56,569 bases of DNA from an uncultured Bacteroidales bacterium (GTDB lineage Bacteria; Bacteroidota; Bacteroidia; Bacteroidales; WCHB1-69). The stretch lies in contig CALAVA010000029.1 in assembly GCA_937892025.1 (NCBI GenBank), forward strand, positions 1-56,569, written 5' to 3'. Position numbers and translations under genes: made by a program. Each line of letters begins with the position of its first letter. The first letter of the stretch is position 1. The notes beneath the pieces were generated by a model, which saw nothing but the letters and a program-made list of their open reading frames with translations, was not told the DNA's origin and made no database searches. Below, one piece after another: positions 112-54,211 of this stretch.

Positions 112-582
112 ATGGAAATAAAGAACATTGATGGTAATTTGCTTGATACTGATGCTGAATTAATTTTGCATCAAGTTAATTGCCAGGGAAAAATGAATAG
201 TGGAGTTGCAAAGGCGATTCGTGAAAAATGGCCAATTGTGTTTGAAGAATACATTAAACTTTTTTCTAATGATTTGTTTGTTGTTAAACTTGGTATATGT
301 CAGCCTGTATCTGTTACTGATAATCAAAAGGTTATAAATATGTTTTCACAGGACAATTATGGCTATGATGGGAAAATGTACACTTCATATGATGCAATTA
401 ACACTTGCCTTGGAAAAGTAAAGGATTATTGCGTTAATAATGGATATAAAAGGATAGCACTTCCATATAAAATGTGTTGTTGTCGTGGAGGGGCCAATTG
501 GGATGTTATAATGGCAATGATAAAAGCGAATTTTGAAGACTCTGGTATCACAATTGAAATATGGAAATTAGACAATGACTAA
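112..582 (+). CDS. Macro domain protein (ADP-ribose binding/hydrolase family)
   Basis: 156-aa ORF. 'AELILHQVNCQGKMNSGVAKAIREKWP' resembles the macro-domain nucleotide-binding loop. A terminator hairpin follows. Confidence 0.65.
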   Translation: MEIKNIDGNLLDTDAELILHQVNCQGKMNSGVAKAIREKWPIVFEEYIKLFSNDLFVVKLGICQPVSVTDNQKVINMFSQDNYGYDGKMYTSYDAINTCLGKVKDYCVNNGYKRIALPYKMCCCRGGANWDVIMAMIKANFEDSGITIEIWKLDND

Positions 583-3440: not shown

Positions 3441-4124
3441 ATGAGTTTAAGACATTACGATAGTATACCAAGAGAACAGGACTATGGTGCGTTGAATGGC
3501 GAAATGGTTTTTGGCTTCAATAAACTTGATGGCCAAAATTTCTGTGTCCAATATAAGCCAAAGCATAAAATATGGGGTCCTTGTGGCTCACGTACAAGAA
3601 CCGTTGATGAAAACGATGAGCAATTTGGCGAAACTGTAAAGTACTTTAACAATTCAAAGTATAAGAACATTTTAGAGGAAATTGTTGCGAACAACAGAGG
3701 AAAGAAACAAATCTTCAATGGCGTTGAAGAAATGACTTTTTATTTTGAATGGTTTGGAGAAAATTCATTTGCAGGAAAGCATCAAGAAGGTGATGAAATG
3801 CACTTGGCTCTTATTGACGTGTTTATGAAAAAACGTGGATATATGGAACCAAAAGACTTTGTGGACTTGTTCTATGAAAGTGGCATTGTTTTACCAGATT
3901 TGGTCTATAATGGTCCGTTGAACGCTGAGATTATTGATAAAATTAAGAATAACGATTGGACCCAAGAAGGCTGTGAGTTTCCTTATGTAAAGGAAGGTGT
4001 TGTATTCAAACGTTCAACATTACTTCCAGGTCAGCGTAGACCTTCAGTTAAGGTTAAGACAAAATGGTGGCTGAATAAGCTATATTCAATGTATAGTGAA
4101 GAAGAATGCAAAATTTTGGAATAA
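3441..4124 (+). CDS. ATP-dependent RNA ligase (minimal nucleotidyltransferase domain)
   Basis: Ligase motifs I 'NKLDGQN', III 'FYFEWFGE', IV 'EGVVFK' and V 'KVKTKWW' in canonical order. Confidence 0.7.
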   Translation: MSLRHYDSIPREQDYGALNGEMVFGFNKLDGQNFCVQYKPKHKIWGPCGSRTRTVDENDEQFGETVKYFNNSKYKNILEEIVANNRGKKQIFNGVEEMTFYFEWFGENSFAGKHQEGDEMHLALIDVFMKKRGYMEPKDFVDLFYESGIVLPDLVYNGPLNAEIIDKIKNNDWTQEGCEFPYVKEGVVFKRSTLLPGQRRPSVKVKTKWWLNKLYSMYSEEECKILE

Positions 4125-15776: not shown

Positions 15777-16614
15777 AGTTAAAATTGCATTAGTAACGAT
15801 TACAAGGCTTGGAAACAAATATCTTAGAGAGTTTATTGAATACTATCTAAACATTGGTGTTGACAAGATATATTTTTATGATAATAACAGATGGAGAGAA
15901 GAAAACGTTATGGATGTAGTCAGTGACTATGTTAATAATGGCCTTGTTGAAGTGATTTATTTTGGAAATGCCGAGGGAAGAATACAAGAAATTGCATATC
16001 AAGATTTTTATAACAATCACGGAAATGAATATGATTGGATATGCTATTTTGATGATGATGAATATGTTGTTATAAACAGCAACGAAAACCTTAAAAATTT
16101 TTTATCAAATCCAATGTTTTGTGATAAAAATGGAGTTTCTTTTCCAATGATAAATTATTCAGATTCTGGCGTTATTGTTAACAACAAAAACACAAGGCTT
16201 GATGTTTATACACAAATTAAAAATAGAGGAAAAATATGGGCCAATAGTTTTTATAAGACAATTATACGTGGTGGATTAAATGTTACATATATAATTGGAA
16301 AATATGAAGGGGATGATAATATCTATGACAATTCTTTCCACGTTCCTGTTGTTGACTTAAAAGTCTATAACAACATTGTTGATTGTGACGGAAATGAAGT
16401 TACATATTGGGTTACAATGAATGAAACATATAATGGTTATTTAAAACATATTCCCACAGGCTGTATTGACGATTTTATTAATATGAAAATGAAAAGATGT
16501 TGGCCTGGACCAGAAAGAACGGATGTTAAATTTGATTATGAATATTTTTCAAAATACAACAATCCAACTAACGAAAAATACCAATATTATATAGAGCATA
16601 CAAATCTTGAATGA
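15769..16614 (+). CDS. Glycosyltransferase (GT-A fold, GT2/GT92-like)
   Basis: '[35 protein letters not shown]' and the DxD-like 'FDDDEY'. Confidence 0.5.
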
Positions 16615-16688
16615 AATATATTATAATGAAAATAGCATCTGTTACATTAACAAGACTTGGAAACAAGGTACTAAAAAGTAGTGATAGG

Positions 16689-17195
16689 ATGAAGCAAGAA
16701 AAAGATAATAAAATGAAAGTAATATTTCTTGATATTGATGGGACAATCAATAGTTACGAGTACTATGTCTCTGATAGATGTACTGGAAATTTAAATGGTG
16801 TTGAAGGAGACATAGACCCATTGTGCGCTGAACGAATCAATAGAATATGCAAAGAAACTGGCGCTAAAATTGTTCTATCAAGCGATTGGAGAATCAATTG
16901 GCCATACTGTATTGACAGGATTGAGAAAGGTGGAGTTGAACATGGACTTATAATTGATAAGACACCTGAACATATGTGGGTTGAACATTGCACAGGAGAC
17001 TTTTTGGATTGGAGTTCGAGAGGTTCTGAAATTAACGACTGGCTTTCTCAACATCCAGAATGTGACAGGTTTGTTATACTCGATGACAGAAAAGATTTTA
17101 CCGAGGAACAGAAGCCTAATTTTGTCCATGTAAACCCAATGCGTGGGCTTGACGATGATGATGTTAATTTTGCAATTCAAATTTTAAATAGATAA
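16689..17195 (+). CDS. HAD-superfamily phosphatase
   Basis: HAD motif I 'FLDIDGTIN', 'LSSDWR' and 'VILDDR'. The ORF-track start 16611 includes a duplicated fragment of the upstream gene, so ATG 16689 or 16713 is more likely. Confidence 0.6.
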   Translation: MKQEKDNKMKVIFLDIDGTINSYEYYVSDRCTGNLNGVEGDIDPLCAERINRICKETGAKIVLSSDWRINWPYCIDRIEKGGVEHGLIIDKTPEHMWVEHCTGDFLDWSSRGSEINDWLSQHPECDRFVILDDRKDFTEEQKPNFVHVNPMRGLDDDDVNFAIQILNR

Positions 17196-20753: not shown

Positions 20754-20793
20754 CTGACATACTCACACGAATGATTTCGTTGGAGTATGTCAG
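20754..20793 (+). repeat. Structured repeat, copy C (mini hairpin form)
   Basis: A 40-nt near-perfect hairpin, CTGACATACTC-ACACGAA-TGAT-TTCGT-TG-GAGTATGTCAG, 135 nt upstream of the DUF2828 start. Confidence 0.85.
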
Positions 20794-22578: not shown

Positions 22579-22604
22579 AGAATCTAATGTTGAAAATTGA
22601 AAAA

Positions 22605-22631
22605 AGAGGACCTTATTGGTTCTCTTTTTTT
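22605..22631 (+). terminator. Rho-independent terminator
   Basis: AGAGGACC-TTATT-GGTTCTCT followed by T7. Confidence 0.75.
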
Positions 22632-22647
22632 ATCTTTATGTATAATA

Positions 22648-22678
22648 CTGACATACTCCCACGATTGAAATCGTTGGG
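22648..22678 (+). repeat. Structured repeat, copy D (5' module only)
   Basis: TATAAT-A-CTGACATACTCCCACGAT-TGAA-ATCGTTGGG, 17 nt after the terminator. Confidence 0.8.
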
Positions 22679-22749
22679 CTCTTTAATTTTTAAAAAATAT
22701 TTGTTATTTAATTATAATTTTTGTATTATTAATAATAAAGTAATTAAAT

Positions 22750-23433
22750 ATGGGCACTAAGATAAAAACGTTTTTTTGTGCAGATTTACATTTTGGGCAT
22801 CAGACAATTTTGTATCATCATCCAAGCAGGCGTGATGAGTGTGGAGTGACATTGGAAGAGTTGCAGAAAGATAAGAATGCTGCTATTGAAAAGCATGATG
22901 AATGGCTTATTAATTTATGGAATAGTACTATAAATAAAGAAGACCATGTGTACATTATTGGCGATTTTTGTCTTGGTAACAAAGAGTGTACAGAGCATAT
23001 TCTTCAAAGATTGAAAGGTAAAAAATTTCTTGTTAGAGGTAATCACGATAGAAGTTGTAACGGCCTTGAAAGATATTTTGAGTGGGTTGGTGATATTAAA
23101 GAGGTGAAATTCACACACAATCAATATGATTTTATTGACCCAGAAGAAACTTTTTGTGTTGAATTATGCCATTATCCTTTGTTTACTTGGAATAGGAGAA
23201 CACATGGCACTGTTCATATCCATGGCCATTGTCATGGTAGCATTGATTACGTTAATATACTTTCAAAAGAATTAAGGGCTGATGTCGGATTAGATGGTAC
23301 TTTAAGTAATTACAAAATTGTTGATTTAGAAACTGTTTACAATTATTTTGTTAAAATTCGTAATAATGCTGGAATTAACAAGTTTGCTGATTATCAAGAA
23401 TGGCTTATGGAACAGCAAGGCTTTAGAATGTAA
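22750..23433 (+). CDS. Calcineurin-like metallophosphoesterase
   Basis: 'DLHFGH', 'IIGDF', 'RGNHD' and 'HGHCHG' in canonical order. Confidence 0.8.
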   Translation: MGTKIKTFFCADLHFGHQTILYHHPSRRDECGVTLEELQKDKNAAIEKHDEWLINLWNSTINKEDHVYIIGDFCLGNKECTEHILQRLKGKKFLVRGNHDRSCNGLERYFEWVGDIKEVKFTHNQYDFIDPEETFCVELCHYPLFTWNRRTHGTVHIHGHCHGSIDYVNILSKELRADVGLDGTLSNYKIVDLETVYNYFVKIRNNAGINKFADYQEWLMEQQGFRM

Positions 23434-23465
23434 TAATAAAAATAATAAAAATAGATAATTAAATT

Positions 23466-23591
23466 ATGACACTTGATGAATTATTAGAATGTTTAAATAG
23501 CATTAGTGAAGGAGGCTTTGGTAATTATGAAACAGGAATCAAAGCAATAGAACTTAATGTTGAAAATAAGACTATAGGGTTAAAATTTTGA
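23466..23591 (+). CDS. Small hypothetical protein (41 aa)
   Basis: ATG 23466 to TGA 23591 fills an intergenic gap. Confidence 0.3.
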   Translation: MTLDELLECLNSISEGGFGNYETGIKAIELNVENKTIGLKF

Positions 23592-23594
23592 GAA

Positions 23595-23972
23595 ATGAAC
23601 ATTTATTATTTAGCGTTTAGATATAAAAAAGACGTAAATGTTGTAAAAGTTACTGCAAATCAATTAAGTAATGAATTATTGGGAAATACTGATGATATTT
23701 TTGATTTAAAATGGGGTAAAGAGCATGAAGAAGATGAATTTGGTATTAGTGACCAAGGATTTACAAAACACTCATGGTTTGATGGTAATGATTATGTAAT
23801 AGAGTTTGCTGATGACCCTCATTTCTTCAATATTTATAAATACGTTAAAGACGAAGAAGAATCAAAAAAATGGTATGGTGAACATATAATAGCAAAAAAC
23901 ATTCCGTGGGTTTGTTTTAAAATTGAAGATGAGAACGGAAATGAAATTTATAATTTGAATAATGAAATCTAA
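23595..23972 (+). CDS. Hypothetical protein
   Basis: 125-aa ORF overlapping the next gene by 11 nt. Confidence 0.6.
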   Translation: MNIYYLAFRYKKDVNVVKVTANQLSNELLGNTDDIFDLKWGKEHEEDEFGISDQGFTKHSWFDGNDYVIEFADDPHFFNIYKYVKDEEESKKWYGEHIIAKNIPWVCFKIEDENGNEIYNLNNEI

Positions 23973-24744
23973 AATGGAAAAAAACATAAAGGTATTAATC
24001 ATTCCTGATGTACATGGAAGAGAATTTTGGCGTGAGCCTGTAAAAGACGTTTTAGAAAAAACAGACGCAAGAATTGTTTTTTTAGGGGATTATCTAGATT
24101 GCTATCCAAATGAATTCGTGCATAGTGAAAACTATCAAGAAAATGCCATAGGTAACTTTAATGAAATAATTAATTTAAAGAAAGAAAACAAAGACAGAAT
24201 TACATTACTACTTGGTAATCACGATATGGGCTATAGATTTGACCTTGATATATGTGATTGCCGTACTGACTATTATAATTTTGAAAGGATTAGGAATATA
24301 TTTATTGAGAATAAGGATTTGTTCCAACTTGCAGATGAAGAATACATTGAAGATAAGCACTATATTTTTAGTCATGCAGGAATACACAAAGGATATGTGA
24401 AATATGCATTTCCTGATGAATTTGATTCCATAACCGAAGAAAATGTTGTTGATTATTTTAATAATGCATATTTTACTGAAGACCCTAAAGTCATTAATTC
24501 TCTTGGAATGTATGATGCTTATAGAGGATATGGAGCATATGATTATGGCTCAATTGTGTGGGCTGACATACATAGCTGGATGAAAGATGATTATGACGGA
24601 TATGCCTATAATATTGTTGGGCACACTCAACTACAACACGGATGTGGAGGTATTATTACTGATAAAGTTGCGGATTTGGATAGTGCTGAGGCGTTCATTA
24701 TCAACGACTTAGGAGAATTAAAAAAATATTTTGGAAATTTGTAA
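23962..24744 (+). CDS. Ser/Thr-phosphatase-like metallophosphoesterase
   Basis: 'IPDVHG', 'LGDYLD', 'LGNHD' and 'VGHT' motifs. Confidence 0.75.
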   Translation: MKSKMEKNIKVLIIPDVHGREFWREPVKDVLEKTDARIVFLGDYLDCYPNEFVHSENYQENAIGNFNEIINLKKENKDRITLLLGNHDMGYRFDLDICDCRTDYYNFERIRNIFIENKDLFQLADEEYIEDKHYIFSHAGIHKGYVKYAFPDEFDSITEENVVDYFNNAYFTEDPKVINSLGMYDAYRGYGAYDYGSIVWADIHSWMKDDYDGYAYNIVGHTQLQHGCGGIITDKVADLDSAEAFIINDLGELKKYFGNL

Positions 24745-24787
24745 ATTGTTTGTGCATTAGATGATGTAAAACTTAAAAATTAAAATT

Positions 24788-25078
24788 ATGATTTGGATTA
24801 GAATTTTCATTATCTTGTTTGTGGGACTTATGGGCATTTATTATGGAATGCTTATCCTTCAATGTTTGACTTCTTGGTTTAAAATGACTAACAGAGAAAT
24901 TACGTTTATCAGATGTTTAATTCCTTTCTATTATTGGATTGCACCTATTAACGAGAATAATCGTGCAAAGTCTGATTATGAAGACGAAAACGAAGACGAT
25001 GACGAAGGTATTGCAAGAGAAAAAGAAATTAACAAAAATATTAATAAATACGAAAGAATAAAAGAAGACAAAAATTAA
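24788..25078 (+). CDS. Membrane protein with acidic tail
   Basis: The N-terminal hydrophobic 'IWIRIFIILFVGLMGIYYGMLIL' is followed by a D/E-rich tail. Confidence 0.55.
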   Translation: MIWIRIFIILFVGLMGIYYGMLILQCLTSWFKMTNREITFIRCLIPFYYWIAPINENNRAKSDYEDENEDDDEGIAREKEINKNINKYERIKEDKN

Positions 25079-25116
25079 AAATCAATTTAATTATTAACTT
25101 AAACATTTTAAAAATT

Positions 25117-26346
25117 ATGAGTAAAAATTTAAAGAAGGAGCCAATGAACGTGACCAAGAAGGCCATTATTGGCATTGTAACGATTGCCGTTGCTATCATG
25201 TTAATTTTCGTCTGCCGTTCATTATTTGAAGATGCTGACAAGTCCAAGAACTACGTTTGTCAAATGCCTATCACAGGTGAGTACCACGTGTGGACCGAGG
25301 GTGGTTTGCAGATGCAGTACTTCGGTAACGTAGAGTCCTACAACAAGACCTCACAGGTCGAATTTAGTGGGCTTGAAAAAAATGAAAACGGATACATTGC
25401 GACTGGTAAAAATCCCGCCGCTGCTTTGACGTTCACAGATAATGGTAGAGGTATGATTGTTGGCTCATTTCGAGTTGTATTGCCTACTGACCATCAAAAC
25501 ATGGAGAAGATTCAACGTGATTTCGGCTCAGAGGAAGCTTTGATTAATAACTTAGTTCGTCCTACTCTGTATAAGGTAGTAACTGCTTGCGGCCCTTTGA
25601 TGTCATCACTTCAATCTGTTTCAGAGACTCGTACAGACCTTATTGATTATATCACTGACCAATTGAATAACGGTGTGTATAAGACTAAAGCAATTAAGAC
25701 TGAGGTTGTCAATGAGATTACAGGCGAGCCTGAAACTCGTACCACTGCTCAGATTATCGAAGATATTAATGCCCCAAGGGGTTACAAGCGTCAAGAGGTT
25801 TCACCGTTTAGCCAATATGGTATCACTTGCGGTTTGGTGTCAATCACTGACATTAAGTACGATGCCGCAACTCAAGACCAAATTGACGCACAGAAGGCCG
25901 CTAACTTGGCTGTGATTACTTCAAAGACCAAATCAATCGAGGCTATGCAGAAGACTATTCAGATTGCTGAGGAAGGTAAGGCTGCTACTGAGAAGGCAAA
26001 GTGGGAACAAGAACGTATTAAAATCGTTGAAGTAACCAAGGCAGAACAAGAGCGTGAAGTTGCACGTCTTGCTGCTGAAAAGGCTGAGTTCGATAAGAAA
26101 AAGATTGTTGCTGAAGGTGAGGCTAAAGCCGCTGCAAACCGTGCATTGGTTGCCGCAGGTCTTACACCTCTTGAGAGAGCAAATATCGAAAAAGAAACTA
26201 AGATTGGTGTTGCAAATGCCCTTAAAGATATTAAACTCCCAAGAATTGTTATGACAGGTGGAAGTGGCTCAGGTGGCGCTGGCGCAGCTTTTGACGCAAT
26301 GGGCCTAAAAGCTATGACTGAACTTGTTGACAAGATGTCTGAATGA
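25117..26346 (+). CDS. SPFH/band-7 (prohibitin/flotillin-like) membrane protein
   Basis: N-terminal TM helix, central globular domain and an A/E/K-rich coiled coil 'AEQEREVARLAAEKAEFDKKKIVAEGEAKAAANRA'. Higher G+C than its surroundings. Confidence 0.55.
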   Translation: MSKNLKKEPMNVTKKAIIGIVTIAVAIMLIFVCRSLFEDADKSKNYVCQMPITGEYHVWTEGGLQMQYFGNVESYNKTSQVEFSGLEKNENGYIATGKNPAAALTFTDNGRGMIVGSFRVVLPTDHQNMEKIQRDFGSEEALINNLVRPTLYKVVTACGPLMSSLQSVSETRTDLIDYITDQLNNGVYKTKAIKTEVVNEITGEPETRTTAQIIEDINAPRGYKRQEVSPFSQYGITCGLVSITDIKYDAATQDQIDAQKAANLAVITSKTKSIEAMQKTIQIAEEGKAATEKAKWEQERIKIVEVTKAEQEREVARLAAEKAEFDKKKIVAEGEAKAAANRALVAAGLTPLERANIEKETKIGVANALKDIKLPRIVMTGGSGSGGAGAAFDAMGLKAMTELVDKMSE

Positions 26347-26366
26347 CATGTATCACTAATAAAAAA

Positions 26367-26393
26367 AGGCACTAATTGATAGTGCCTTTTTTT
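26367..26393 (+). terminator. Rho-independent terminator
   Basis: AGGCACTA-ATTGA-TAGTGCCT followed by T7. Confidence 0.8.
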
Positions 26394-26492
26394 GTTTTAT
26401 AAAGTTCAACAAATTCTAAATACTTTTCATAATGTTTTCTTTTTGTTTTACTGGAAGAATTTGAAAGGAATTTTTTTATTAAAATTTGTTTT

Positions 26493-26514
26493 TTTGGCAC
26501 AGTTTTTGTATATT
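26493..26514 (+). promoter_or_regulatory. -24/-12-like motif
   Basis: TTTGGCAC-AGTTT-TTGTATATT, about 40 nt upstream of ATG 26557. Confidence 0.55.
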
Positions 26515-26556
26515 CATAATATTGAAAAGAATTTTAGTAATTTAATAGGTTATTAT

Positions 26557-27699
26557 ATGGGAAACGAAGTTAGAGTAAAAGATGGCGTTCCTTATCTTGT
26601 AGAACCAAGTGAAGCCGAAAAAATCAACAGAAGAGTTTCCGAAATTAATTTTGAACTGAAATATGCAGGACAACTGATTGGAAGCGATTTGAAACAAGAA
26701 ATAAATAATTTCAGACATCAAGGTACGACTTGTTCTCCAATTTATCAGAGGTATGGCATAGTTTTTGATAAAATACTTAAAAATTGTAATAATATGAAAA
26801 AGACACAAACTTACACAAAAATTAACACATTGTATTGCAGATACAAAAACTTAAACAAAATTAAACTCCCTAATCCTGATTGGAAATTTTTTCAAAACAA
26901 GATTATTCTTGGTCAGTTTTCTGATGATTATATGGATTATATAAAAAATTTGAAGTTTGATTGCTTTTCAAAAATTGATGGAACAAATTCTAAGATTGTC
27001 TATTTTCCTTCAACAAATGTATGTTTTTGCGGAGGTAAAACCGATAATGCCGATATTATTCACACAGGCCAAAAGGAATATTTGGATAATTTAATTGAAA
27101 GAATTAAGCCTATTCTTGCAGAGATGTTTCCTCCTGAGAGTGCAAGGTTTATTCCAAAGATGAATGACAAAAATCAGATAGAATACCATAGTATTACCAC
27201 TAATGAAATTTTAATTCCTGACCATGAAAGAAATTATGCTGTAAATGTTGAAGAGGCTCCTGTATACATTTACGGTGAATTTTTCGGCAAGAAAATTCAG
27301 GCAGGCGGAAATTATGACAAAGATAATAATCGTTTTTCAATCTTTGATATCTGTGTACAAGGATGGTGGATTCCTATTGATATGCTGAATGAATATGCTG
27401 AAAAACTTGGAATCGATGTTGTTCCTTATCTTGGGCAAATGACAATCCATGAAGCTGAGGAAATGGTAAAAAGTGGATTTAAAACTCATGTCCCTAATGT
27501 AACTAATCCTGATTATCTTGAAGAAGGAATTGTTGCAAGACCTGTTATTCCAATTAAGGACCCAAGAGGTAAAAGAATTATTGTTAAAATTAAAACTTGT
27601 GACTATAACGAATTGACTTCTGCAATTAATAAAGTCGGAATTGAAGAATATGAAAAATTTAATAAATGGTATTTTGAAAATAAAATTGATGAAATTTAA
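26557..27699 (+). CDS. ATP-dependent RNA ligase
   Basis: Motifs I 'SKIDGTN', III 'IYGEFFG', IV 'EGIVARP' and V 'IIVKIKT'. The ORF-track start 26392 would read through the terminator and promoter, so ATG 26557 is used. Confidence 0.7.
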   Translation: MGNEVRVKDGVPYLVEPSEAEKINRRVSEINFELKYAGQLIGSDLKQEINNFRHQGTTCSPIYQRYGIVFDKILKNCNNMKKTQTYTKINTLYCRYKNLNKIKLPNPDWKFFQNKIILGQFSDDYMDYIKNLKFDCFSKIDGTNSKIVYFPSTNVCFCGGKTDNADIIHTGQKEYLDNLIERIKPILAEMFPPESARFIPKMNDKNQIEYHSITTNEILIPDHERNYAVNVEEAPVYIYGEFFGKKIQAGGNYDKDNNRFSIFDICVQGWWIPIDMLNEYAEKLGIDVVPYLGQMTIHEAEEMVKSGFKTHVPNVTNPDYLEEGIVARPVIPIKDPRGKRIIVKIKTCDYNELTSAINKVGIEEYEKFNKWYFENKIDEI

Positions 27700-27710
27700 A
27701 CTTTTTAAAA

Positions 27711-29213
27711 ATGGCTAAAAGATTTGTATTGACAAAGGATGCCAATCCTAACTATTTGGCTACAATTTGCAAAATTGGAGAAACTTTTCCAATTGAAGGT
27801 GCCGACAAACTTGTAAAGACCGTAGTAAACGGTTATGACATTGTTATTGGTAAGGACCACAAGGAGGGAGACATTGTTGTCTATTTCCCTGTAGAGTGTG
27901 CTATTAGCCAAATGTACTTGTCAACAAACAACCTATTTGAGCGTTCAGAATTTGAAAGAAACGCCAATGCCGATTCTGTTAAAGAGTATCTTGTTGAACT
28001 TGAAAACGCTGAAAATGAGAACGACACGGAAAAGGCTGAGGAAATTTCGGCTAAGATTAAGTCAATGTGTGGATTTTTCAACAAGAACGGACGTGTACGT
28101 ATCTTGAAACTTCGTGGGCAATATTCTCAAGGATTCATTGCAGGTGTTGATTCTCTTGTTAATTATGATTCAACCTTGAAAGATACTAATTGGGAATCTC
28201 TTGTTGGTACTCAATTCAACTATATTGATGACAAAGAGTTTTGCTATAAATATATTCCGCCCATTAGGGGCCATTGCAATAGCAACAATGGTAATCAGGG
28301 TCAGTCTATATGGAAAAAGAGAATGAAAAATCTGAAGAAATTCAACAGACTTGTTGATGGGCAGTTCGCATATCATTATGATACAAAGCAGCTTGGTGAA
28401 CATATTAATGAGTTAAATCCAAATGATAATGTATCTATTACTGTTAAAGTTCATGGTACTTCTATAATTATGTCAAACATTCTTGTTAACAAGAAACTTA
28501 CTACTTGGGAAAAAATTAAGAAGTTCTTTGGTGTTAAGGTTCCAATGGTAGAATACGGAAATGTTTACTCTTCAAGAGGTGTAATCAAGAATAAGTATAT
28601 CAACCAAGGAGTTACTTCAGGATACTACGGATGCGATATTTACGGATGTGTAAACCGTGATTTTTCGCCTTATATTGATAAGGGTATGACTGTCTATGGT
28701 GAAGTTGTTGGGTATCTTGAAAACTCAACTTCAATGATTCAGAAGCAGCATGACTATGGGTGTAAGACTGGCCATTGGAAGTTTATGCCATATAGAATCA
28801 CTTCAACCGATGAGAATGGTAATCATAAAGAATGGCCTATCAAGCAGGTTGACGAATGGACGCATAAACTTGTTGAACTTCATCCTGAACTTGCTGATAA
28901 AACAATGTTCTTGAATTTTGTTTATTATGGAAGATTTGGTGATATGTATACAGATATTCCTGAGGATGAAAATTGGAACAAAAACATTCTTGCAAGAATG
29001 AAATCTGACAGAAAACTCATTCTTATGGAAGAAGATGAACCTATGTGCAAGAATAAGGTTCCTCGTGAGGGGGTTGTTGTTAGAATTGTTGGCGATAACT
29101 TTGCAAGAGCATGGAAATTAAAAAGTTTAAGACATTTTGACCGAGAAGCTAAACAGCATGATAATGGAGAGGTAGATATGGAAGAAATGGCTTCCTCAGA
29201 AGAAATTTCTTAA
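27711..29213 (+). CDS. RNA ligase with N-terminal OB-like domain (DraRnl/Rnl5-like architecture)
   Basis: N-terminal 'ATICKIGETFPIEGADKLVKTVVNGYDIVIGKDHKEGDIVVYFP', then motifs I 'VKVHGTS', III 'VYGEVVG', IV 'EGVVVR' and V 'AWKLKS'. Confidence 0.7.
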   Translation: MAKRFVLTKDANPNYLATICKIGETFPIEGADKLVKTVVNGYDIVIGKDHKEGDIVVYFPVECAISQMYLSTNNLFERSEFERNANADSVKEYLVELENAENENDTEKAEEISAKIKSMCGFFNKNGRVRILKLRGQYSQGFIAGVDSLVNYDSTLKDTNWESLVGTQFNYIDDKEFCYKYIPPIRGHCNSNNGNQGQSIWKKRMKNLKKFNRLVDGQFAYHYDTKQLGEHINELNPNDNVSITVKVHGTSIIMSNILVNKKLTTWEKIKKFFGVKVPMVEYGNVYSSRGVIKNKYINQGVTSGYYGCDIYGCVNRDFSPYIDKGMTVYGEVVGYLENSTSMIQKQHDYGCKTGHWKFMPYRITSTDENGNHKEWPIKQVDEWTHKLVELHPELADKTMFLNFVYYGRFGDMYTDIPEDENWNKNILARMKSDRKLILMEEDEPMCKNKVPREGVVVRIVGDNFARAWKLKSLRHFDREAKQHDNGEVDMEEMASSEEIS

Positions 29214-29868: not shown

Positions 29869-30606
29869 TTAAATTGATTCGTTATATTTTTTTATTACAT
29901 ATTCAGCTAAAATATTAAATCTTTTATCTCCATATTTGTGAATCGCCATTGGAAATTTGCTTATGTCTTTATTATTTTCATAAATATCAATAAAATCGTC
30001 AGTTAATAAATAACTGTCAAAACTAAAATATTGTCCAATTTCTGGCGGGGAAATATTTTTTAAACCATATGTTTCGTTGATGAAAAACAAATCTTCAGCA
30101 TTAAAATTTTTATTGTTATTTGTTTCTTCCCAATCTGGCCTGTTTTCAATGTTTTCTATAAATGAAGATACTTTTCTTAATGAAAACCCACCACAAAGGC
30201 ATTTTAAAAAAGCCATGCTATCAATAAAATAACAACAAGAAGCATAATAATCATAATCCATTTCCATATAATAATCAAGGTTGTCATACAATGCATATAC
30301 ATCTGTTTGATAAATCAAAATATATTTGTAGGTTGTAAACATCCTATAGAAATTTGGATGAATTAAAAGATGGCCATACATTTCAACAGATGAAAGCCAT
30401 TTTTCTTCAATTTCCAAAAAAGCAACACTCTTGTTATTTTTTTTTGAAAGTTCAACAATTTCAGACATATCTGTTCCATTTGGAAAAACAATGCAGATTT
30501 CTCTGTTTTTAAAAACCCTAAAACAAGACTCAACTGATTTTATTTCATACTCATTTAAATGAGCTTTATATATAATAAGCAAAATTAATACGTCCTTTTT
30601 TTCCAT
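29869..30606 (-). CDS. DUF5672-like protein (putative glycosyltransferase-like)
   Basis: 'YILIYQTDVY', 'YDYYASCC' and 'GGFSLRKVS' blocks. The track start 30660 lies inside repeat copy E, so ATG 30606 ('MEKKDV') is used. Confidence 0.5.
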   Translation of the reverse strand: MEKKDVLILLIIYKAHLNEYEIKSVESCFRVFKNREICIVFPNGTDMSEIVELSKKNNKSVAFLEIEEKWLSSVEMYGHLLIHPNFYRMFTTYKYILIYQTDVYALYDNLDYYMEMDYDYYASCCYFIDSMAFLKCLCGGFSLRKVSSFIENIENRPDWEETNNNKNFNAEDLFFINETYGLKNISPPEIGQYFSFDSYLLTDDFIDIYENNKDISKFPMAIHKYGDKRFNILAEYVIKKYNESI

Positions 30607-30646
30607 TAAACAACAATTTATTAAAAATAATAAACAGACTTGAATT

Positions 30647-30823
30647 CTGACATATTCCAACGAATGAATTCGTGGGGTTCTTTTTTTATTAAAAACATGT
30701 ATTTGTTAATAAGTTATACCTATTAACCACACTTGATACATCAAGTGGTGCTGTCAGCAGCGCAATGTTAAAGCAATTCATCCCACGGCTAAAGCAATGG
30801 GCTTTCTTGCACGTTAATCGTAA
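30647..30823 (+). repeat. Structured repeat, copy E (full length)
   Basis: Fills the whole gap between two - strand genes but keeps the + orientation of all other copies. Confidence 0.9.
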
Positions 30824-30824
30824 A

Positions 30825-31595
30825 TTATTTTAATGGCTGATATTTGAAGTTCCTTACGCTGAATGGCTTATCAATCCTGTTTTTAATTATTTTTGGGTCA
30901 TCAATATTTACCTCAAGTATGACATCCATTAAATGCCCATTTTCGGGATTTTTTAAATTGTTAACTAACATTTGTGCATATTTTTTGCTAACTGTTTTAG
31001 TTACAACCCCATTTGCTTTAAATGTTATCTTATCTGGCTCCCATACGCATTCGTATTTAATCCAATTTTCAGTTGGGTCAAGTGGTTGGTCACATTTCAT
31101 AACATTCTTTGAGCCAAGATGTTCGTGAACAATATTTTTGTTGTTATAGTGTACATTATAGGTTGTTCTCCAAGAAGGAAGAATCCACGGAAAATGATTT
31201 GTAGTTCTCCAACTATAATTATTATCTTCTGACCAAGCTTCGAGAATATCAATTTCAGGTGGCCAATTTCCGTGTCCACTTAGCCAAAAAGCACAACAAA
31301 TATTCAAGCCTTTAGGACACATTGCTTCAATTGAAAACGTTCCATAATCAAAATGCGTTGTTGTTCTTATAAGAGCTCTTTCAATTGTTGGATTATATAT
31401 TTTGCCATCCCAATGCTTAATTTCTATTGGGTTTTCTTTATACGTAAGATGTAACTCTCCGTTCTTCATCATAGTTAACACATTTTCATCACAGCCATAC
31501 CAAGCATATGGGTATTGGGTGTGAATAATTCTACCACCCTCCATTTTATTGGACCATTCGTATCCGCACCAATTAATTTTTTCCATTTTTATCAT
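30825..31595 (-). CDS. Glycoside hydrolase family 16 (beta-glucanase/laminarinase-like)
   Basis: Catalytic motif 'EIDILE' (ExDxxE). The start could instead be 31586 or 31712; the latter adds a hydrophobic 39-aa extension. Confidence 0.65.
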   Translation of the reverse strand: MIKMEKINWCGYEWSNKMEGGRIIHTQYPYAWYGCDENVLTMMKNGELHLTYKENPIEIKHWDGKIYNPTIERALIRTTTHFDYGTFSIEAMCPKGLNICCAFWLSGHGNWPPEIDILEAWSEDNNYSWRTTNHFPWILPSWRTTYNVHYNNKNIVHEHLGSKNVMKCDQPLDPTENWIKYECVWEPDKITFKANGVVTKTVSKKYAQMLVNNLKNPENGHLMDVILEVNIDDPKIIKNRIDKPFSVRNFKYQPLK

Positions 31596-31646
31596 TTTTT
31601 TATAAATATTTGCTTTAGAGGCGAAAAAATTGTAAATTAAGAATAA

Positions 31647-31664
31647 TTTGGTACAATATTTGAT
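31647..31664 (+). promoter_or_regulatory. -24/-12-like motif
   Basis: TTTGGTAC-AATAT-TTGAT, nearly identical to 3132-3148, 38 nt upstream of ATG 31702. Confidence 0.5.
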
Positions 31665-31701
31665 GAGATAAAGTGAAAAAAATATTAAAATTATTATTAT
31701 T

Positions 31702-31986
31702 ATGGAATTCAAAAAAGAAAATTATTTCACAAAGCACGAAGACAATGTTATTAAAACAATATCACTTGATGAATTGAAAAATGCTATTGATTATTTGGTT
31801 AATACAGCAAATACGAGAAATAAATGCCCTTGTGAAATTCCTGTTTATTTTACGTACAATGACAAAAAATATGAATTATCGAAACGCACAACTCTTAGGC
31901 TTTTTTGCTGTAGAGAAATTGAGGTCCACATTGACTTCACAGACTATTATTCCATTGAATTTGTCGCGCCATATTCACGTTCATAA
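31702..31986 (+). CDS. Hypothetical protein
   Basis: 94-aa ORF downstream of the promoter-like motif. Confidence 0.55.
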   Translation: MEFKKENYFTKHEDNVIKTISLDELKNAIDYLVNTANTRNKCPCEIPVYFTYNDKKYELSKRTTLRLFCCREIEVHIDFTDYYSIEFVAPYSRS

Positions 31987-32043
31987 GATTGGTTATTAAC
32001 TGTTAAATAAGATTTTATTAAAAAAACGAAAAATATTGGCTAA

Positions 32044-32444: not shown

Positions 32445-32492
32445 ATGTGAGTTTGCTGTATATAGGGATGATGATAGATTTGTGAGATGTGG

Positions 32493-32520
32493 AGATGGCT
32501 TTCTTGCATGTTAATCGTAA
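32493..32520 (+). repeat. Structured repeat, copy G (3' terminal 28 nt only)
   Basis: AGATGGCTTTCTTGCATGTTAATCGTAA matches the 3' end of the full copies and ends 3 nt before ATG 32524. Confidence 0.7.
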
Positions 32521-32523
32521 ATT

Positions 32524-52525: not shown

Positions 52526-52627
52526 AATTTATTTGGCATCACCTGTGCTGAGGCTTGGAGATAGCACTTTCTACTATTTTTTTGTGATTGCATGAATAGT
52601 AATAATTGCTGTACGCTTTCTTCAGAG

Positions 52628-52699
52628 TAGCGGGGGGAGGACTCGAACCTCCGACTTCCAGGTTATGGGCCTGACGAGCTGCCTCTGCTCTACCCCGCA
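52628..52699 (-). tRNA. tRNA-Met (anticodon CAU) with initiator-like features
   Basis: 72-nt cloverleaf with anticodon loop CCCATAA and T arm GGAGG-TTCGAGT-CCTCC. It has a 1:72 U-U mismatch and A11:U24 (initiator-like) but only two G:C pairs at the base of the anticodon stem. tRNA-Ile2 (lysidine) cannot be excluded. Confidence 0.8.
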
Positions 52700-52841
52700 T
52701 CAGTTATCAAAGAACAAAAGTTATCAGAAAACATTTTATGACAAACACCATTGTTTTTTAATTAGTTGCTGTTAGTTTTCTTTTTATGTTATAAATATAC
52801 AAACTAATTTTAAAAAAACCAAATTTTTTTGTATTTTTTTT

Positions 52842-52918
52842 GTCCTCCCCATGGGCTCTAACCACGAACTGTATGGATATAAGCCATATGCTCTAACCAA
52901 TTGAGACTTAGAAGAGGA
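52842..52918 (-). pseudogene. Aberrant tRNA-like element related to tRNA-Ile(UAU)
   Basis: Acceptor TCCTCTT/GGGAGGA, anticodon arm TATGG-CTTATAT-CCATA and T arm CGTGG-TTAGAGC-CCATG. There are 5 nt instead of 2 between the acceptor and D stems, and the T loop is non-canonical. Confidence 0.4.
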
Positions 52919-52926
52919 TTTTAATT

Positions 52927-53328
52927 TTAATTCATATAGAATCCAATCTTTCTATTAAATGGTGTATTACCATCGTAGAAGTCCTTGTAAGCGAATTCAT
53001 ATATATGGCTTCCACTATTTTGCTTGGCTATTACTGTGATAGTATCCTTATCAACGGCCATCATATAGATATTCACGCCACTAAGAGAAATAGAGTCATT
53101 AATCTTTTCCATTGTAAAACAGGAACTTCCATCACCAAGATTAATATGGTATGTGCTGTCATTCAGTCTGTCAACAGCAATGATTGATTCTTGTTCCCAT
53201 TGTTCCTTCCATCTGCTTTCAATTATGGAATCTTTCACGACAATGTATAAAAGAAATCCAACACAAGCAATTCCAATTATAATTAAAATAAGCAATCCTT
53301 TTGATAATGAGTTTCTGTTTTCTTCCAT
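52927..53328 (-). CDS. Membrane-anchored hypothetical protein
   Basis: N-terminal TM 'GLLILIIIGIACVGFLLYIVV'; 133 aa. Confidence 0.6.
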   Translation of the reverse strand: MEENRNSLSKGLLILIIIGIACVGFLLYIVVKDSIIESRWKEQWEQESIIAVDRLNDSTYHINLGDGSSCFTMEKINDSISLSGVNIYMMAVDKDTITVIAKQNSGSHIYEFAYKDFYDGNTPFNRKIGFYMN

Positions 53329-53360
53329 TGTTTAAAGTTTTATAATTTCAAATTTTAATT

Positions 53361-53380
53361 ATACAATAATTATGCCAAAG
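53361..53380 (-). promoter_or_regulatory. -24/-12-like motif
   Basis: Minus sense: CTTTGGCAT-AATTA-TTGTAT, 33 nt upstream of ATG 53328. Confidence 0.55.
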
Positions 53381-53386
53381 TTTTAA

Positions 53387-53408
53387 ATATGTACGCAATT
53401 GCGTATAT
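53387..53408. promoter_or_regulatory. Palindromic operator/UAS candidate
   Basis: ATATGTACGCA-AT-TGCGTATAT, about 23 bp upstream of the GG of the 53361 motif. Confidence 0.5.
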
Positions 53409-53414
53409 TACTTG

Positions 53415-53753
53415 TAGCGGTGGCCGGACTCGAACCGGCACGGGCGCAATGCCCAGAAGATTTTCTTACTACACTTGCTTTTACACAAGCCATCTACTTG
53501 AGATGTTGTAGTCTGGACTATTTCTTCACCATGCAGTGATGTTTAGGTGTCTCGTATATAGTCTCTACGCCATTTTTATTAGAGAGCCATCGCCAAAGAA
53601 TGTGTCACCACATTCGAGGTTTCTGTTTGTTAGCGAGATTCTACATCCCAATATTAATTATCGTTTTCTCCTTTCGGAAAGGATGCACTCTTATTGCGAC
53701 CTTATTGGTCAACTTTCAAAGTCTGCCGTGTCTACCAATTCCACCACACCGCC
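53415..53753 (-). tRNA. tRNA-Leu (anticodon UAA) interrupted by a group-I-like intron
   Basis: The 5' exon (53753-53719, GGCGGTGTGGTGGAATTGGTAGACACGGCAGACTT) and 3' exon (53464-53415) join into an 85-nt class II tRNA. It has anticodon loop CTT|AAAA, a long variable arm and T arm GCCGG-TTCGAGT-CCGGC. Confidence 0.75.
53465..53718 (-). ncRNA. Group I-like intron (254 nt, no ORF) in the tRNA-Leu anticodon loop
   Basis: Inserted after U34 and ends in G. 'GUAGAGACUA' and 'AAGAAAUAGUCC' resemble the conserved J6/7-P7 and J8/7-P7' elements (GACUA/UAGUC pairing). There is also a GNRA-capped hairpin, GAAUGUG-GUGA-CACAUUC. Confidence 0.65.
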
Positions 53754-53788
53754 ATTATTTCAAAGAACAAATATGTACGCATTACTTG

Positions 53789-53863
53789 TGGGAACAGTAG
53801 GATTCGAACCTACGACCCTCTCGGTGTAAACGAGATGCGCTAAACCAACTACGCTATGCTCCC
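53789..53863 (-). tRNA. tRNA-Val (anticodon UAC)
   Basis: 75-nt cloverleaf with acceptor GGGAGCA/TGTTCCC, anticodon loop TTTACAC and T arm GTAGG-TTCGAAT-CCTAC. Confidence 0.85.
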
Positions 53864-53915
53864 AAATCATAGAGATAGATGTCTTGCCAAGTCGTTGACT
53901 TACCTCTACTACAAT

Positions 53916-53942
53916 ATTATTATTATTATTATTATTATTATT
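53916..53942 (-). repeat. (ATT)9 microsatellite, read as (AAU)9 in transcript sense
   Basis: Nine perfect units starting 2 nt downstream of the tRNA-Ile 3' end. Confidence 0.95.
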
Positions 53943-53944
53943 TG

Positions 53945-54018
53945 TCCTCTGGGATGGACTTGAACCACCGACCTTGAAGGTATAAGCTTCCTGCGCTAAC
54001 CAACTGCGCCACCAGAGG
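53945..54018 (-). tRNA. tRNA-Ile (anticodon UAU)
   Basis: 74-nt cloverleaf with acceptor CCTCTGG/CCAGAGG, D arm GCGC-AGTTGGTTA-GCGC, anticodon loop CTTATAC and T arm GGTGG-TTCAAGT-CCATC. Confidence 0.8.
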
Positions 54019-54040
54019 ATGTGTCTTGTAATATATAGAT

Positions 54041-54067
54041 TGCTCTAACCAACTGTGCTACGGGACC
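54041..54067 (-). pseudogene. tRNA 5' fragment (acceptor strand plus D arm only)
   Basis: GGTCCCG-TA-GCAC-AGTTGGTTA-GAGC-A has no matching anticodon or T arm and no 3' acceptor strand downstream. Confidence 0.5.
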
Positions 54068-54138
54068 TTAATAGGTTTTTCGTGATACGGTATCCTAAAA
54101 CAGTTTCGATGTATCACACAAGACCAACCTATAGGTTG

Positions 54139-54211
54139 AGCAGCATAAGGGAATCGAACCCTCACCCCCAGCTTGGAAGGCTGGTATACTAAACCGTTAT
54201 ACGAATGCTGC
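54139..54211 (-). tRNA. tRNA-Gly (anticodon UCC)
   Basis: 73-nt cloverleaf with acceptor GCAGCAT/ATGCTGC, anticodon arm CCAGC-CTTCCAA-GCTGG and T arm GAGGG-TTCGATT-CCCTT. Confidence 0.85.

Follow-up and report, generated by a model that had tools for sequence, protein, structure and literature searches.

A predicted, distributed RNA end-healing and sealing gene set with three RNA ligases in an uncultured gut/rumen jumbo phage

The description of RNA-repair gene sets in jumbo phages is said to have its earlier base in work by Burroughs and Aravind of 2016. Here, we report on the genes for RNA end healing and sealing predicted on the contig CALAVA010000029.1 (assembly GCA_937892025.1, binned as an uncultured Bacteroidales bacterium), which was analysed over its whole length of 56,569 nucleotides (56.6 kb, GC content 0.32) and is called the window below. 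Three predicted RNA ligases (Lig1, Lig2 and Lig3), two calcineurin-type metallophosphoesterases (MPE1 and MPE2) and a HAD-superfamily phosphatase are encoded in the window (Table 1), and a second contig (C115) of the same bin, which comprises 376 contigs and 2.34 Mb, encodes an HD-Pnk-type protein, a CCA-adding enzyme and RlaP. Taken together, the results make it likely that these genes form a distributed RNA end-healing and sealing kit in a jumbo phage.

The closest described systems are the RNA-repair sets of jumbo phages surveyed by Iyer, Anantharaman, Krishnan, Burroughs & Aravind 2021 (Viruses 13:63, PMC7824862, section 3.4.9). These authors report jumbo phages in which several paralogs of RNA ligase occur (three of Rnl2 in XacN1), along with SAK-type HAD, calcineurin-like and HD phosphatases, polynucleotide kinases, ROT/TROVE proteins, RlaP and CCA-adding enzymes, and they argue that the ligases are specialised and not redundant (PMC7824862). 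The phage studied here resembles those jumbo phages in having several ligases, three kinds of phosphatase, a P-loop kinase, RlaP, a CCA-adding enzyme, a probable ROT/TROVE-like protein and tRNA genes, with the parts dispersed and often shuffled. It differs from them in belonging to an uncultured gut/rumen clade, the phage records searched containing nothing near-identical to its DNA; in its ligases, two of which are Rnl2-like without the C-terminal domain and one Rnl5-like, none of them being an Rnl1 or an Rnl2 proper (no search was made for RtcB); in its kinase, which is of the HD-Pnk and not the Pnk-HAD type; and in the presence, inside the cluster, of an SPFH protein and of a vWA protein of DUF2828 type, not canonical TROVE. 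Because the same syntax is described in the survey (PMC7824862), the locus is not a new class. Multi-ligase RNA-repair kits are already known from giant phages, and a preliminary description of the window, made from the sequence without database searches, had gone too far in calling three ligases in one phage unusual. The locus is a rich but ordinary case, modestly new in its mix of ligases, in the recurrent pairing of MPE2 with an Rnl5-like ligase, and in the SPFH and DUF2828-type vWA proteins inside the cluster.

The comparison with phage T4, drawn already in the preliminary description, holds for the logic of the set and not for its parts, as the ligase families, their conserved motifs, the HAD_SAK_2 phosphatase and the HD-Pnk indicate. 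As in the repair of PrrC-cleaved tRNA-Lys by T4 Pnkp and Rnl1 (with Rnl2), 2',3'-cyclic-phosphate and 5'-OH ends would be healed and then sealed in an ATP-dependent reaction, in answer to a host anticodon nuclease. Unlike T4, our phage has no Rnl1 (PF09511) among its three ligases, its kinase is fused to an HD phosphoesterase and not to a HAD/DxD phosphatase, and it carries extra phosphoesterases and possible scaffolds.

The HD-Pnk has a counterpart in Runella slithyformis, which, in the passages of PMC6097658 that refer to Munir & Shuman 2017, is a 2',3'-phosphoesterase joined to a 5'-OH kinase, and whose gene follows a ligase gene (PMC6097658). Likewise, the protein encoded on C115 has an N-terminal HD domain and a C-terminal P-loop kinase domain, and in a sibling phage (G006) a small ligase gene stands directly upstream of an HD-Pnk paralog. 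The accompanying genes differ, a CCA-adding enzyme and RlaP following the HD-Pnk in our phage, and Tpt1 and a methyltransferase-HIT protein being found in Runella.

Among characterised ligases, Lig3 resembles DraRnl (DRB0094, Deinococcus radiodurans) and NgrRnl (Naegleria gruberi, 5cot) in its N-terminal OB domain followed by a nucleotidyltransferase domain, in the same motif set and in having no C-terminal OB domain. It departs from these enzymes of about 340 amino acids (aa) in its length of 500 aa, in an insertion of about 45 aa in the OB domain, in others within the nucleotidyltransferase domain, and in its motif I, KxHGxS. Lig1 and Lig2 share the adenylyltransferase domain of T4 Rnl2 (1s68, 2hvq) without its helical C-terminal domain of about 85 aa.

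A further parallel was found in the T5-like Vibrio phage River4, whose genes gp165-gp177 (5255-12899 of locus L045, within 8 kb) encode an SPFH protein (gp165, a homolog of the one in the window; Band_7 E = 1.2e-8), a lambda-type (NinI-like) phosphoesterase, an Rnl1-type ligase, a 141-aa AAA_33 kinase, an MPE1 homolog and a Macro protein. In the River4 record the ligase is annotated as 'RNA ligase/tail attachment protein', the kinase as 'ATPase' and the Macro protein as 'phosphatase', and NAD-salvage genes lie alongside. Judged by its gene content, this is probably an unrecognised RNA-repair island. It matches our phage in its functional set (SPFH, phosphoesterases, ligase, kinase, Macro), drawn in part from other families: River4 has an Rnl1-type ligase (PF09511) and a lambda-type phosphoesterase that is no ortholog of MPE2, and its island is known by annotation.

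Three predicted RNA ligases

The genes named in the preliminary description were found at, or very near, the places it gave, and profile searches confirmed their families. Its phrase 'three RNA-ligase paralogs' has to be divided: all three proteins belong among the RNA ligases by family, and Lig1 and Lig2 (25% identity) group by sequence as distant members of one Rnl2-like clade without the C-terminal domain, whereas Lig3 falls into another family, with no detectable similarity to Lig2. Motifs I, III, IV and V, read from each of the three sequences at that stage, are indeed present, and they are invariant across the 34 and 10 homologs aligned below. Placement with DNA ligases or capping enzymes, or variable motifs, which the preliminary description had named as contrary evidence, were looked for in the profile and fold searches and in the alignments and not found: at E ≤ 0.01, none of the three proteins matched the DNA-ligase or capping-enzyme Pfam families (PF01068, PF01331), nor did any match RNA_lig_T4_1 (PF09511, Rnl1). 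We therefore assign all three to the ATP-dependent RNA ligase superfamily, their activity being predicted from these features.

The motifs of Lig1 are K28-LDGQN (I), YFEWFG (III), LIDVF (IIIa), KEGVVFK (IV) and VKVKT (V), and its 435 homologs have 225-227 aa and occur on contigs of up to 416 kb. For Lig2, the gene boundary given previously (26557-27699, 380 aa) could not be kept, although the assignment to the RNA-ligase family could. Its homologs, 987 database proteins of 298-315 aa, cover only the last ~78% of the 380-aa open reading frame (ORF). Because these homologs of about 300 aa spare the 5' part of the ORF, we place the start of the ligase at the internal Met at 26794, giving a protein of 301 aa, and the full 380-aa ORF was rejected as the native Lig2. 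The in-frame codons 5' of this start read as a remnant of, or a fusion with, a separate upstream gene. In the numbering of the 301-aa core, the motifs are K60-IDGTN (I), YGE162 (III), FD185 (IIIa), E244-G (IV) and K265-x-K267 (V), the motif I lysine being K139 (KIDGTN) in the 380-aa numbering. A search of 1.84 billion representative proteins (E ≤ 1e-3) for relatives of Lig2 gave 2027 clusters at 50% identity, most of them of 205-245 aa.

Single-sequence searches of the PDB returned nothing for Lig1, Lig2, MPE2 or the DUF2828 protein, so that profiles or models were required. An alignment of Lig1 and Lig2 with 32 diverse relatives drawn from the search of representative proteins (34 sequences in all) showed K-x-D-G of motif I, the glutamate of motif III, the aspartate of motif IIIa, E-G of motif IV and K-x-K of motif V to be invariant. 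The profile built from it matched the adenylyltransferase domain of T4 Rnl2 (1s68) with E = 6e-18, as compared with about 1e-6 for Rnl3, Rnl5 and DNA ligases. The AlphaFold (AF2) model of the Lig2 core, with a predicted local distance difference test score (pLDDT) of 90.8, gave T4 Rnl2 (2hvr, 1s68) as the best Foldseek match (E = 2.7e-10), followed by NgrRnl and the trypanosome ligase REL1. Over the profile and structural searches, T4 Rnl2 and NgrRnl were the top matches by margins of at least 10^8 and about 10^5, respectively.

The Lig2 model predicts about 75 inserted residues between motifs Ia and III and, past motif V, only two short helices (268-295); Lig1 ends about 20 residues past motif V. 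The signature C-terminal helical domain of Rnl2 is absent from both proteins, as judged by the alignment and by the Lig2 model. This domain is needed for nick recognition and 5' adenylylation. Because it is missing, Lig1 and Lig2 are Rnl2-like and not Rnl2 proper, and their TIGR02307 scores are far under the cut-off.

The preliminary description had also ascribed to the 500-aa ligase an N-terminal OB-like domain and the DraRnl/Rnl5 layout, and here the profile searches agreed. Lig3 matched the PHA02142 OB-fold family (PF21189, E = 9.6e-9, residues 16-65) and phrog_968, 'RNA ligase' (E = 4e-42); its match to PF09414 (E = 1e-4, 23 bits) is under the 27-bit cut-off, and its best NCBIfam match, TIGR02306 (DraRnl, DRB0094; E = 2.7e-10), reaches 39.6 bits against a cut-off of 151 and hence not the equivalog level. 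The N-terminus aligns with the OB domain of the Naegleria RNA ligase in the PDB, and a Lig3-family profile is collinear with NgrRnl 5cot (E = 3e-7), matching NgrRnl residues 7-60, 74-117 and 300-337 in that order, that is, the OB domain and the region of motifs IV-V. The motifs are K246-VHGTS (I), YGE331 (III), P451-x-EG (IV) and K469-x-K471 (V); K246, H248, G249, the S of KxHGxS, E331, E453-G454 and K469-x-K471 are the same in all 10 homologs aligned, whose identity goes down to 36%. Lig3 can be placed on these grounds as having the Rnl5 architecture, in a diverged and enlarged phage branch (PHA02142 / phrog_968) that is found in 379 phage records, including mycobacteriophages, cyanophages and Lak megaphages. 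In the cyanophage Synechococcus phage B23, only hypothetical proteins surround the Rnl5-like gene, which is uninformative.

Candidate end-healing enzymes and their neighbourhoods

The absence of a P-loop polynucleotide kinase, noted in the preliminary description, is correct for the window and probably incorrect for the phage. Among the called genes of the window there is no convincing P-loop, the one motif match lying inside an IMPDH-like protein; a search of the bin for AAA_33 found an HD-Pnk-type protein of 373 aa at 16077-17198 of C115, and a phage devoid of polynucleotide kinase was rejected. This protein has an HD domain at residues 65-132 (E = 2.2e-7) and an AAA_33 domain at 222-356 (E = 1.8e-15) with the P-loop GLPGSGKST, and it shows weak similarity to PNK-3'Pase and the bacterial Pnkp kinase. 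Its HD domain is most like the HD domains of cellular CCA-adding enzymes. Over 16077-20292 of C115, the gene order is HD-Pnk (373 aa), a 95-aa ORF, a CCA-adding enzyme without HD domain (451 aa) and RlaP (411 aa); a T4-like portal gene is also on C115.

Several features support the assignment of C115, a different contig of the same bin, to the phage of the window, as far as sequence comparison can tell. The two contigs have the same GC content, and they have in common the rare 12-mer repeat CTGACATACTCC, which is nearly absent elsewhere in the bin. The start of C115 is identical to positions 77-130 of the window over an exact stretch of at least 54 nt in the same orientation, which takes in 19 nt at the beginning of the macro-domain gene. 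Orthologs of HD-Pnk (74% identity), Lig1, MPE2 and Lig3 lie in a compatible order on one contig of G002 (147 kb), the closest long relative, whose Lig3 is 79% identical. The start of another contig of the bin, C289, has at least 55 nt in common with the first 200 nt of the window, and the shared sequence probably reflects a junction in the assembly graph, a promoter cassette present in several copies, or a strain variant.

The link between HD-Pnk and ligases recurs in relatives, where the trio of HD-Pnk, CCA-adding enzyme and RlaP shares a contig with the ligases. In the more distant G001 (393 kb, complete) and G005, the Rnl5-like ligase has an HD-Pnk gene about 5 kb downstream, and in G001 a CCA-adding enzyme follows HD-Pnk and a small Rnl2-like ligase is nearby; in G006, the Lig1 ortholog is about 320 bp upstream of a second HD-Pnk-like gene, a paralog, which adjoins an IS200/IS605 TnpA-TnpB pair. 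When 185,579 species genomes were scanned with the HD-Pnk profile, most matches fell on HD domains belonging to CCA-adding enzymes of cells, only two were full-length, and by tblastn none of the loci had a Lig1-, Lig2- or Lig3-like neighbour. The operon link of ligase and HD-Pnk can, for this reason, not be extended to cellular genomes.

The HAD phosphatase reported at 16689-17195 was confirmed as a HAD_SAK_2 protein scoring 97.2 bits against PF18143 (cut-off 27.5), with its active-site motifs DIDGT, SSD and DD intact; its start is likely 16689 or the Met before VIFLDIDGT. By this family assignment it belongs to the 'Swiss army knife' RNA-repair type and is a candidate RNA 3'-phosphatase. Its gene is flanked, over 14688-18528, by those of a full-length DnaJ (J, zinc-finger and C-terminal domains), a GT92/GT2-like glycosyltransferase and an IMPDH/GMP-reductase-like protein, which are host-like genes of a type unusual in a phage.

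The two calcineurin-type phosphoesterases of the preliminary description were both borne out by full motif sets, MPE1 through phrog_547 and MPE2 through the Metallophos (PF00149) score of its homolog in the Lak-A1 megaphage. MPE2 itself has no Pfam, PHROG or NCBIfam match; its motifs D16-x-H18, G42-D43, G85-N-H87 (GNHD), H138 and GHTQ are invariant among orthologs. In 15 of 15 Lak megaphage records, homologs of MPE2 (33-35% identity) lie 2-3 kb from an Rnl5-like ligase, with genes for Thg1 and an S1 RNA-binding protein nearby. This neighbourhood is good evidence of a link between MPE2 and the Rnl5-like ligase, and it gives moderate support to MPE2 as a candidate 3'-end-healing partner of that ligase. 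MPE1 carries the motifs DLH, GD, GNHD, H141 and GHCHG, its metal-ligand motifs are conserved in homologs, and it matches PDB 1xm7 (Aquifex aq_1665) with E = 1.4e-5. A candidate 2',3'-cyclic or 3'-phosphoesterase, it has homologs in 1427 phage records and is not confined to repair loci; what ties it to repair is its recurring gene neighbourhoods.

Between the phosphoesterases and the ligases, as had been pointed out, there is a probable SPFH membrane protein; its own Pfam match is weak, and it is 69% identical to crAss001 Gp91, annotated 'SPFH-domain/band7-family protein'. Such identity points to a recent exchange between the jumbo phage and a crAss-like phage of Bacteroides. In crAss001, the SPFH gene lies 2.3 kb from that of the TROVE protein Gp96 (locus 2245-7152), and the TROVE gene is followed by a gap of about 900 bp without annotated gene, which could hold a Y-RNA-like gene. 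The N-terminal hydrophobic stretch of the SPFH protein is probably a membrane anchor, and the 96-aa protein encoded just upstream may be its membrane partner, a role suggested by its place. The SPFH protein is a possible scaffold, its neighbourhood being what connects it with RNA repair.

The DUF2828 protein consists of an all-helical N-terminal half and a vWA domain behind it, whose metal-ion-dependent adhesion site (MIDAS) residues D327-x-S-x-S, T400 and D433 are invariant in the family alignment (A3). The three best PDB matches of its AF2 model in Foldseek are all TROVE/Ro60 proteins aligned over the full length with TM-scores of 0.23-0.36 (9kop, E = 9e-6; the Ro60 of phage phiLo, 9l5y; Xenopus Ro60, 2i91). 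Because the model is poor (pLDDT 59.7), these matches are only suggestive. Pfam TROVE gave no match to the protein, and in BLASTP and hhalign comparisons with crAss001 Gp96 only the MIDAS motif aligned. Relying on the model, we regard the protein as a probable Ro60/TROVE-like RNA-binding scaffold; for it, as for SPFH, recurring gene neighbourhoods make a role in repair possible. The conserved 125-aa protein encoded 5' of MPE2 has no Pfam or PHROG family match and no similarity to crAss001 Gp94 or Gp95.

Gene order is well kept among close relatives. The block of G006 comprises, in order, DUF2828, MPE1, the 125-aa protein, MPE2, the small membrane protein, SPFH, a small ORF, Lig2 and Lig3, and G002 keeps the block with a TnpB-like gene in place of Lig2 (a 409-aa TnpB/IS605-like gene, L013 8601-9830, minus strand). 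This gene and the TnpA-TnpB pair of G006 suggest active shuffling of repair genes by small transposons. In sibling phages (G006, L012 5819-6842; G002, L013 6324-7932), inserts of about 230-340 bp split the MPE2 gene and one of about 380 bp splits the SPFH gene, with coding resuming past the inserts, which could be introns or small mobile inserts. Synteny among such close relatives says little on function, and distant phages such as Lak and River4 were therefore examined. Within the window, the terminator-like hairpin after SPFH and a promoter-like motif, TGGCAC-N5-TTTG, near 26493, 5' of Lig2, lead us to treat Lig2-Lig3 as a transcription unit of its own. Read from such signals, the region appears to comprise at least three transcription units and not one operon.

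The proposed repair kit and competing explanations

The reading of these genes as one kit is based on families and domains, conserved motifs, folds and recurring neighbourhoods, from which we infer the substrates, the order of steps, the division of labour and cooperation, and the scaffold roles. In the proposed pathway, host ribotoxins (anticodon nucleases and other metal-independent RNases) would cut tRNA or other RNA, leaving 2',3'-cyclic-phosphate and 5'-OH ends. The 3' end would be converted to 3'-OH by the HD domain of HD-Pnk, the SAK-type HAD phosphatase, probably MPE2 and possibly MPE1, and the 5'-OH would be phosphorylated by the P-loop domain of HD-Pnk. A ligase adenylylated at its motif I lysine would then pass AMP to the 5'-phosphate and seal the break, while RlaP and the CCA-adding enzyme, both from C115, would rebuild nucleotides lost at it. 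Lig3 may seal nicks in duplex or stem regions, and Lig1 and Lig2 may serve other substrates or depend on a partner supplied in trans. The ligases differ in architecture, which suggests different break geometries as their probable targets. The SPFH protein, probably anchored in the membrane, and the DUF2828-vWA protein, probably Ro60/TROVE-like, could act as scaffolds or RNA chaperones. The part taken by the ligases, the HAD phosphatase and HD-Pnk is well supported, and the kit would most likely mend tRNAs and other RNAs cut by host defences.

Several points weigh against a single kit. Rnl2-type ligases without the C-terminal domain may, according to the biochemistry of T4 Rnl2, seal poorly alone. 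The genes fall into at least three transcription units, and the parts occupy two contigs and at least 25 kb. The family of MPE1 is very widespread and has no established RNA role. In the complete relative G001, MPE2 and the ligase are 137 kb apart, and three further relatives yielded no copy of MPE2. The crAss001 SPFH gene has no annotated ligase within 6 kb, and the TROVE-like label of the DUF2828 protein comes from a low-confidence model, the profile comparison having aligned the MIDAS only. Finally, the ligase beside the Runella HD-Pnk self-adenylylates but sealed none of the standard substrates (PMC6097658).

A competing explanation is a mixed accessory island, in which only the ligases, the HAD phosphatase and HD-Pnk/CCA/RlaP act on RNA ends and MPE1, MPE2, SPFH with its small partner and DUF2828 are bystanders, engaged, for example, in protein dephosphorylation (as NinI/lambda-phosphatase-like enzymes), breakdown of signalling nucleotides of the host, control of membrane or lysis, or inhibition of a host RNase by a Ro60-type ribonucleoprotein (RNP). 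We regard such an island as possible, if somewhat doubtful. The terminator-like hairpins set apart DUF2828, the block from MPE1 to SPFH, and Lig2-Lig3; the phage records with MPE1 far outnumber those with such ligases; MPE2 is not linked to the ligase in G001; crAss001 carries SPFH and TROVE without ligases close by; and the phiLo Ro60 binds Y-RNA-like RNAs and attenuates host PNPase, which is not a repair role (PMC12135203). The distant phages, however, speak for the kit: MPE2 stands near an Rnl5-like ligase in two distant phage lineages, and SPFH, two phosphoesterase types, a ligase and a kinase come together again in T5-like River4. Moreover, calcineurin-like phosphatases and TROVE are counted in the RNA-repair systems of jumbo phages (Iyer et al. 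2021, PMC7824862).

A different question is what the ligases seal. They could be true RNA ligases whose main substrates are not tRNAs cut by anticodon nucleases but phage mRNA or rRNA cut by toxin RNases or by RNA-targeting CRISPR/Cas13-like systems, or RNA-containing duplex nicks arising in replication. It speaks for such substrates that Rnl5 and Rnl2 are duplex nick sealers (see the PDB titles of 5cot and 2hvr) and that none of the three ligases is Rnl1-type, as the PF09511 search showed; even so, we think this rather unlikely. The ligases are linked with a CCA-adding enzyme in G001 and with Thg1 in Lak, RlaP comes after the CCA gene on C115, and tRNA genes are on the contig. CCA-adding enzymes and Thg1 act at tRNA ends. 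That any of the 'ligases' should instead be a DNA ligase, a capping enzyme or a relic without activity is very improbable indeed. The covalent nucleotidyltransferase fold is common to all of these, DNA ligases do appear lower in the profile and fold lists, the Lig2 ORF carries a fused 5' remnant, and a TnpB-like gene replaces Lig2 in G002. Against this, the DNA-ligase and capping-enzyme Pfam families gave no match at the threshold stated above, T4 Rnl2 and NgrRnl led by the margins already given, motifs I, III, IIIa, IV and V do not vary among the 34 and 10 diverse homologs aligned, and full-length homologs number from hundreds to thousands.

The kit might also have a more elaborate form, in which DUF2828-vWA and SPFH with its small membrane partner would make up a membrane-tethered RNP platform that recruits MPE2, Lig2, Lig3 and HD-Pnk to broken RNAs, with the CTGACATACTCC-hairpin intergenic RNAs as Y-RNA-like partners; we consider this improbable. 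A related possibility, suggested by analogy with the unsolved Runella pathway, is that Rnl2-like ligases without the C-terminal domain act with HD-Pnk on non-standard ends.

The locus adds to the RNA-repair arsenals of phages a well-resolved case from an abundant uncultured gut/rumen jumbo-phage clade. It points biochemistry to a large uncharacterised family of ligases of about 220-300 aa with the Rnl2 catalytic domain and no C-terminal domain (the 2027 clusters above), to the Rnl5-like phage branch recurring beside a lambda-phosphatase-like enzyme, and to the trio of HD-Pnk, CCA-adding enzyme and RlaP. It also adds to the neighbourhood evidence for a predicted association of SPFH and Ro60-like vWA proteins with enzymes of RNA repair. 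The current picture of how phages counter tRNA-cleaving defences is left unchanged by it.

Coordinates and other features of the window

Table 1. Features of the window referred to in the text, with positions, strands and matches
Feature	Position	Strand	Matches and remarks
Macro-domain protein, DarG-like	112..582	+	Pfam Macro E = 1.5e-4; NCBIfam antitoxin_DarG E = 1.4e-16, under cut-off
Lig1, Rnl2-like RNA ligase, 227 aa, nucleotidyltransferase domain only	3441..4124	+	PF09414 RNA_ligase E = 2.2e-9, over cut-off; phrog_548 'RNA ligase'
tRNA-Gln	8495-8568	+	
HAD-superfamily phosphatase, HAD_SAK_2	16611..17195	+	PF18143 E = 1.4e-27; phrog_1818
DUF2828 + DUF7788/vWA protein, 549 aa	20929..22578	+	PF11443, PF25043, VWA_2; phrog_850 'RNA-binding protein' E = 4e-53
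Terminator-like hairpin, 15-bp stem then T run	22598..22632	+	closes DUF2828 transcription unit
MPE1, calcineurin-type metallophosphoesterase, 227 aa	22750..23433	+	phrog_547 phosphoesterase E = 4.9e-42; Pfam Metallophos E = 0.0015 (under cut-off)
Conserved protein, 125 aa	23595..23972	+	always 5' of MPE2 in close relatives; duplicated in G002
MPE2, lambda-phosphatase-like metallophosphoesterase, 260 aa	23962..24744	+	motifs; Lak-A1 homolog Metallophos E = 3.3e-9
96-aa protein, hydrophobic N-terminal stretch	24788..25078	+	just 5' of SPFH; synteny kept in G006 and G002
SPFH/Band-7 protein, 409 aa	25117..26346	+	Band_7 (PF01145) E = 0.0033, under cut-off; phrog_11908 E = 2.8e-37
Terminator-like hairpin GGCACTA-ATTGA-TAGTGCC then T7	26368..26393	+	just past SPFH
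79 in-frame codons 5' of Lig2 core	26557..26793	+	like N-terminus of separate 154-aa gene upstream in sibling phage G006
Lig2 core, Rnl2-like ligase, 301 aa	26794..27699	+	PF09414 E = 2.3e-14, over cut-off; phrog_548 'RNA ligase'
Lig3, Rnl5-like ligase, 500 aa, N-terminal OB domain then nucleotidyltransferase domain	27711..29213	+	PF21189 and PF09414; phrog_968
tRNA cluster	52627..54211	-	Met, weak Rfam tRNA, Val, Ile, Gly (ARAGORN, Rfam)

The phage origin of the window is evident from genes of phage type found by profile search (SSB, N6/N4 DNA methylase, a sigma-70-like factor and DUF3310), together with those of an exonuclease and an endonuclease VII/HNH protein. Metagenomic contigs of up to 416 kb carry homologs of the proteins described above. 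The window is a part of a gut/rumen jumbo phage of roughly 350-400 kb, whose host is probably a member of the Bacteroidales.

Where the preliminary description had counted seven tRNA or tRNA-like genes, six were borne out, five by ARAGORN and a sixth by Rfam. The latter (52842-52915, minus strand) is a weak tRNA-like match of 31.7 bits, barely over the gathering score, with no ARAGORN call. The tRNAs of the window are likely beneficiaries or a back-up of the RNA-repair kit.

In an Rfam scan at gathering thresholds, only tRNAs were found in the window, and the full copies of the CTGACATACTCC element matched no family. A permissive scan of 30500-33500, which holds two full copies of the repeat element, for a Y-RNA- or tRNA-like partner RNA gave matches at chance level only. 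The gaps inside the cluster are short, and that at 23433-23595 has a small ORF and not an RNA gene. Copies of CTGACATACTCC with a hairpin lie at 20754-20793, 22648-22682 and 18525-18553, the first two flanking the DUF2828 gene. At 20754-20793, an inverted pair of CTGACATACTCC makes a perfect hairpin of about 40 nt, and the copy of the 12-mer at 22648-22659 follows the DUF2828 terminator, about 90 nt upstream of the MPE1 start.

The macro-domain protein at the start of the window may, by its DarG-like sequence, counter DarT-type ADP-ribosylation or process ADP-ribose(-phosphate) derivatives; its place in the repair kit is uncertain. A gene at 6294-7385, which adjoins the DNA methylase gene and tRNA-Gln, encodes a protein matching DUF1848 with E = 3.7e-90.

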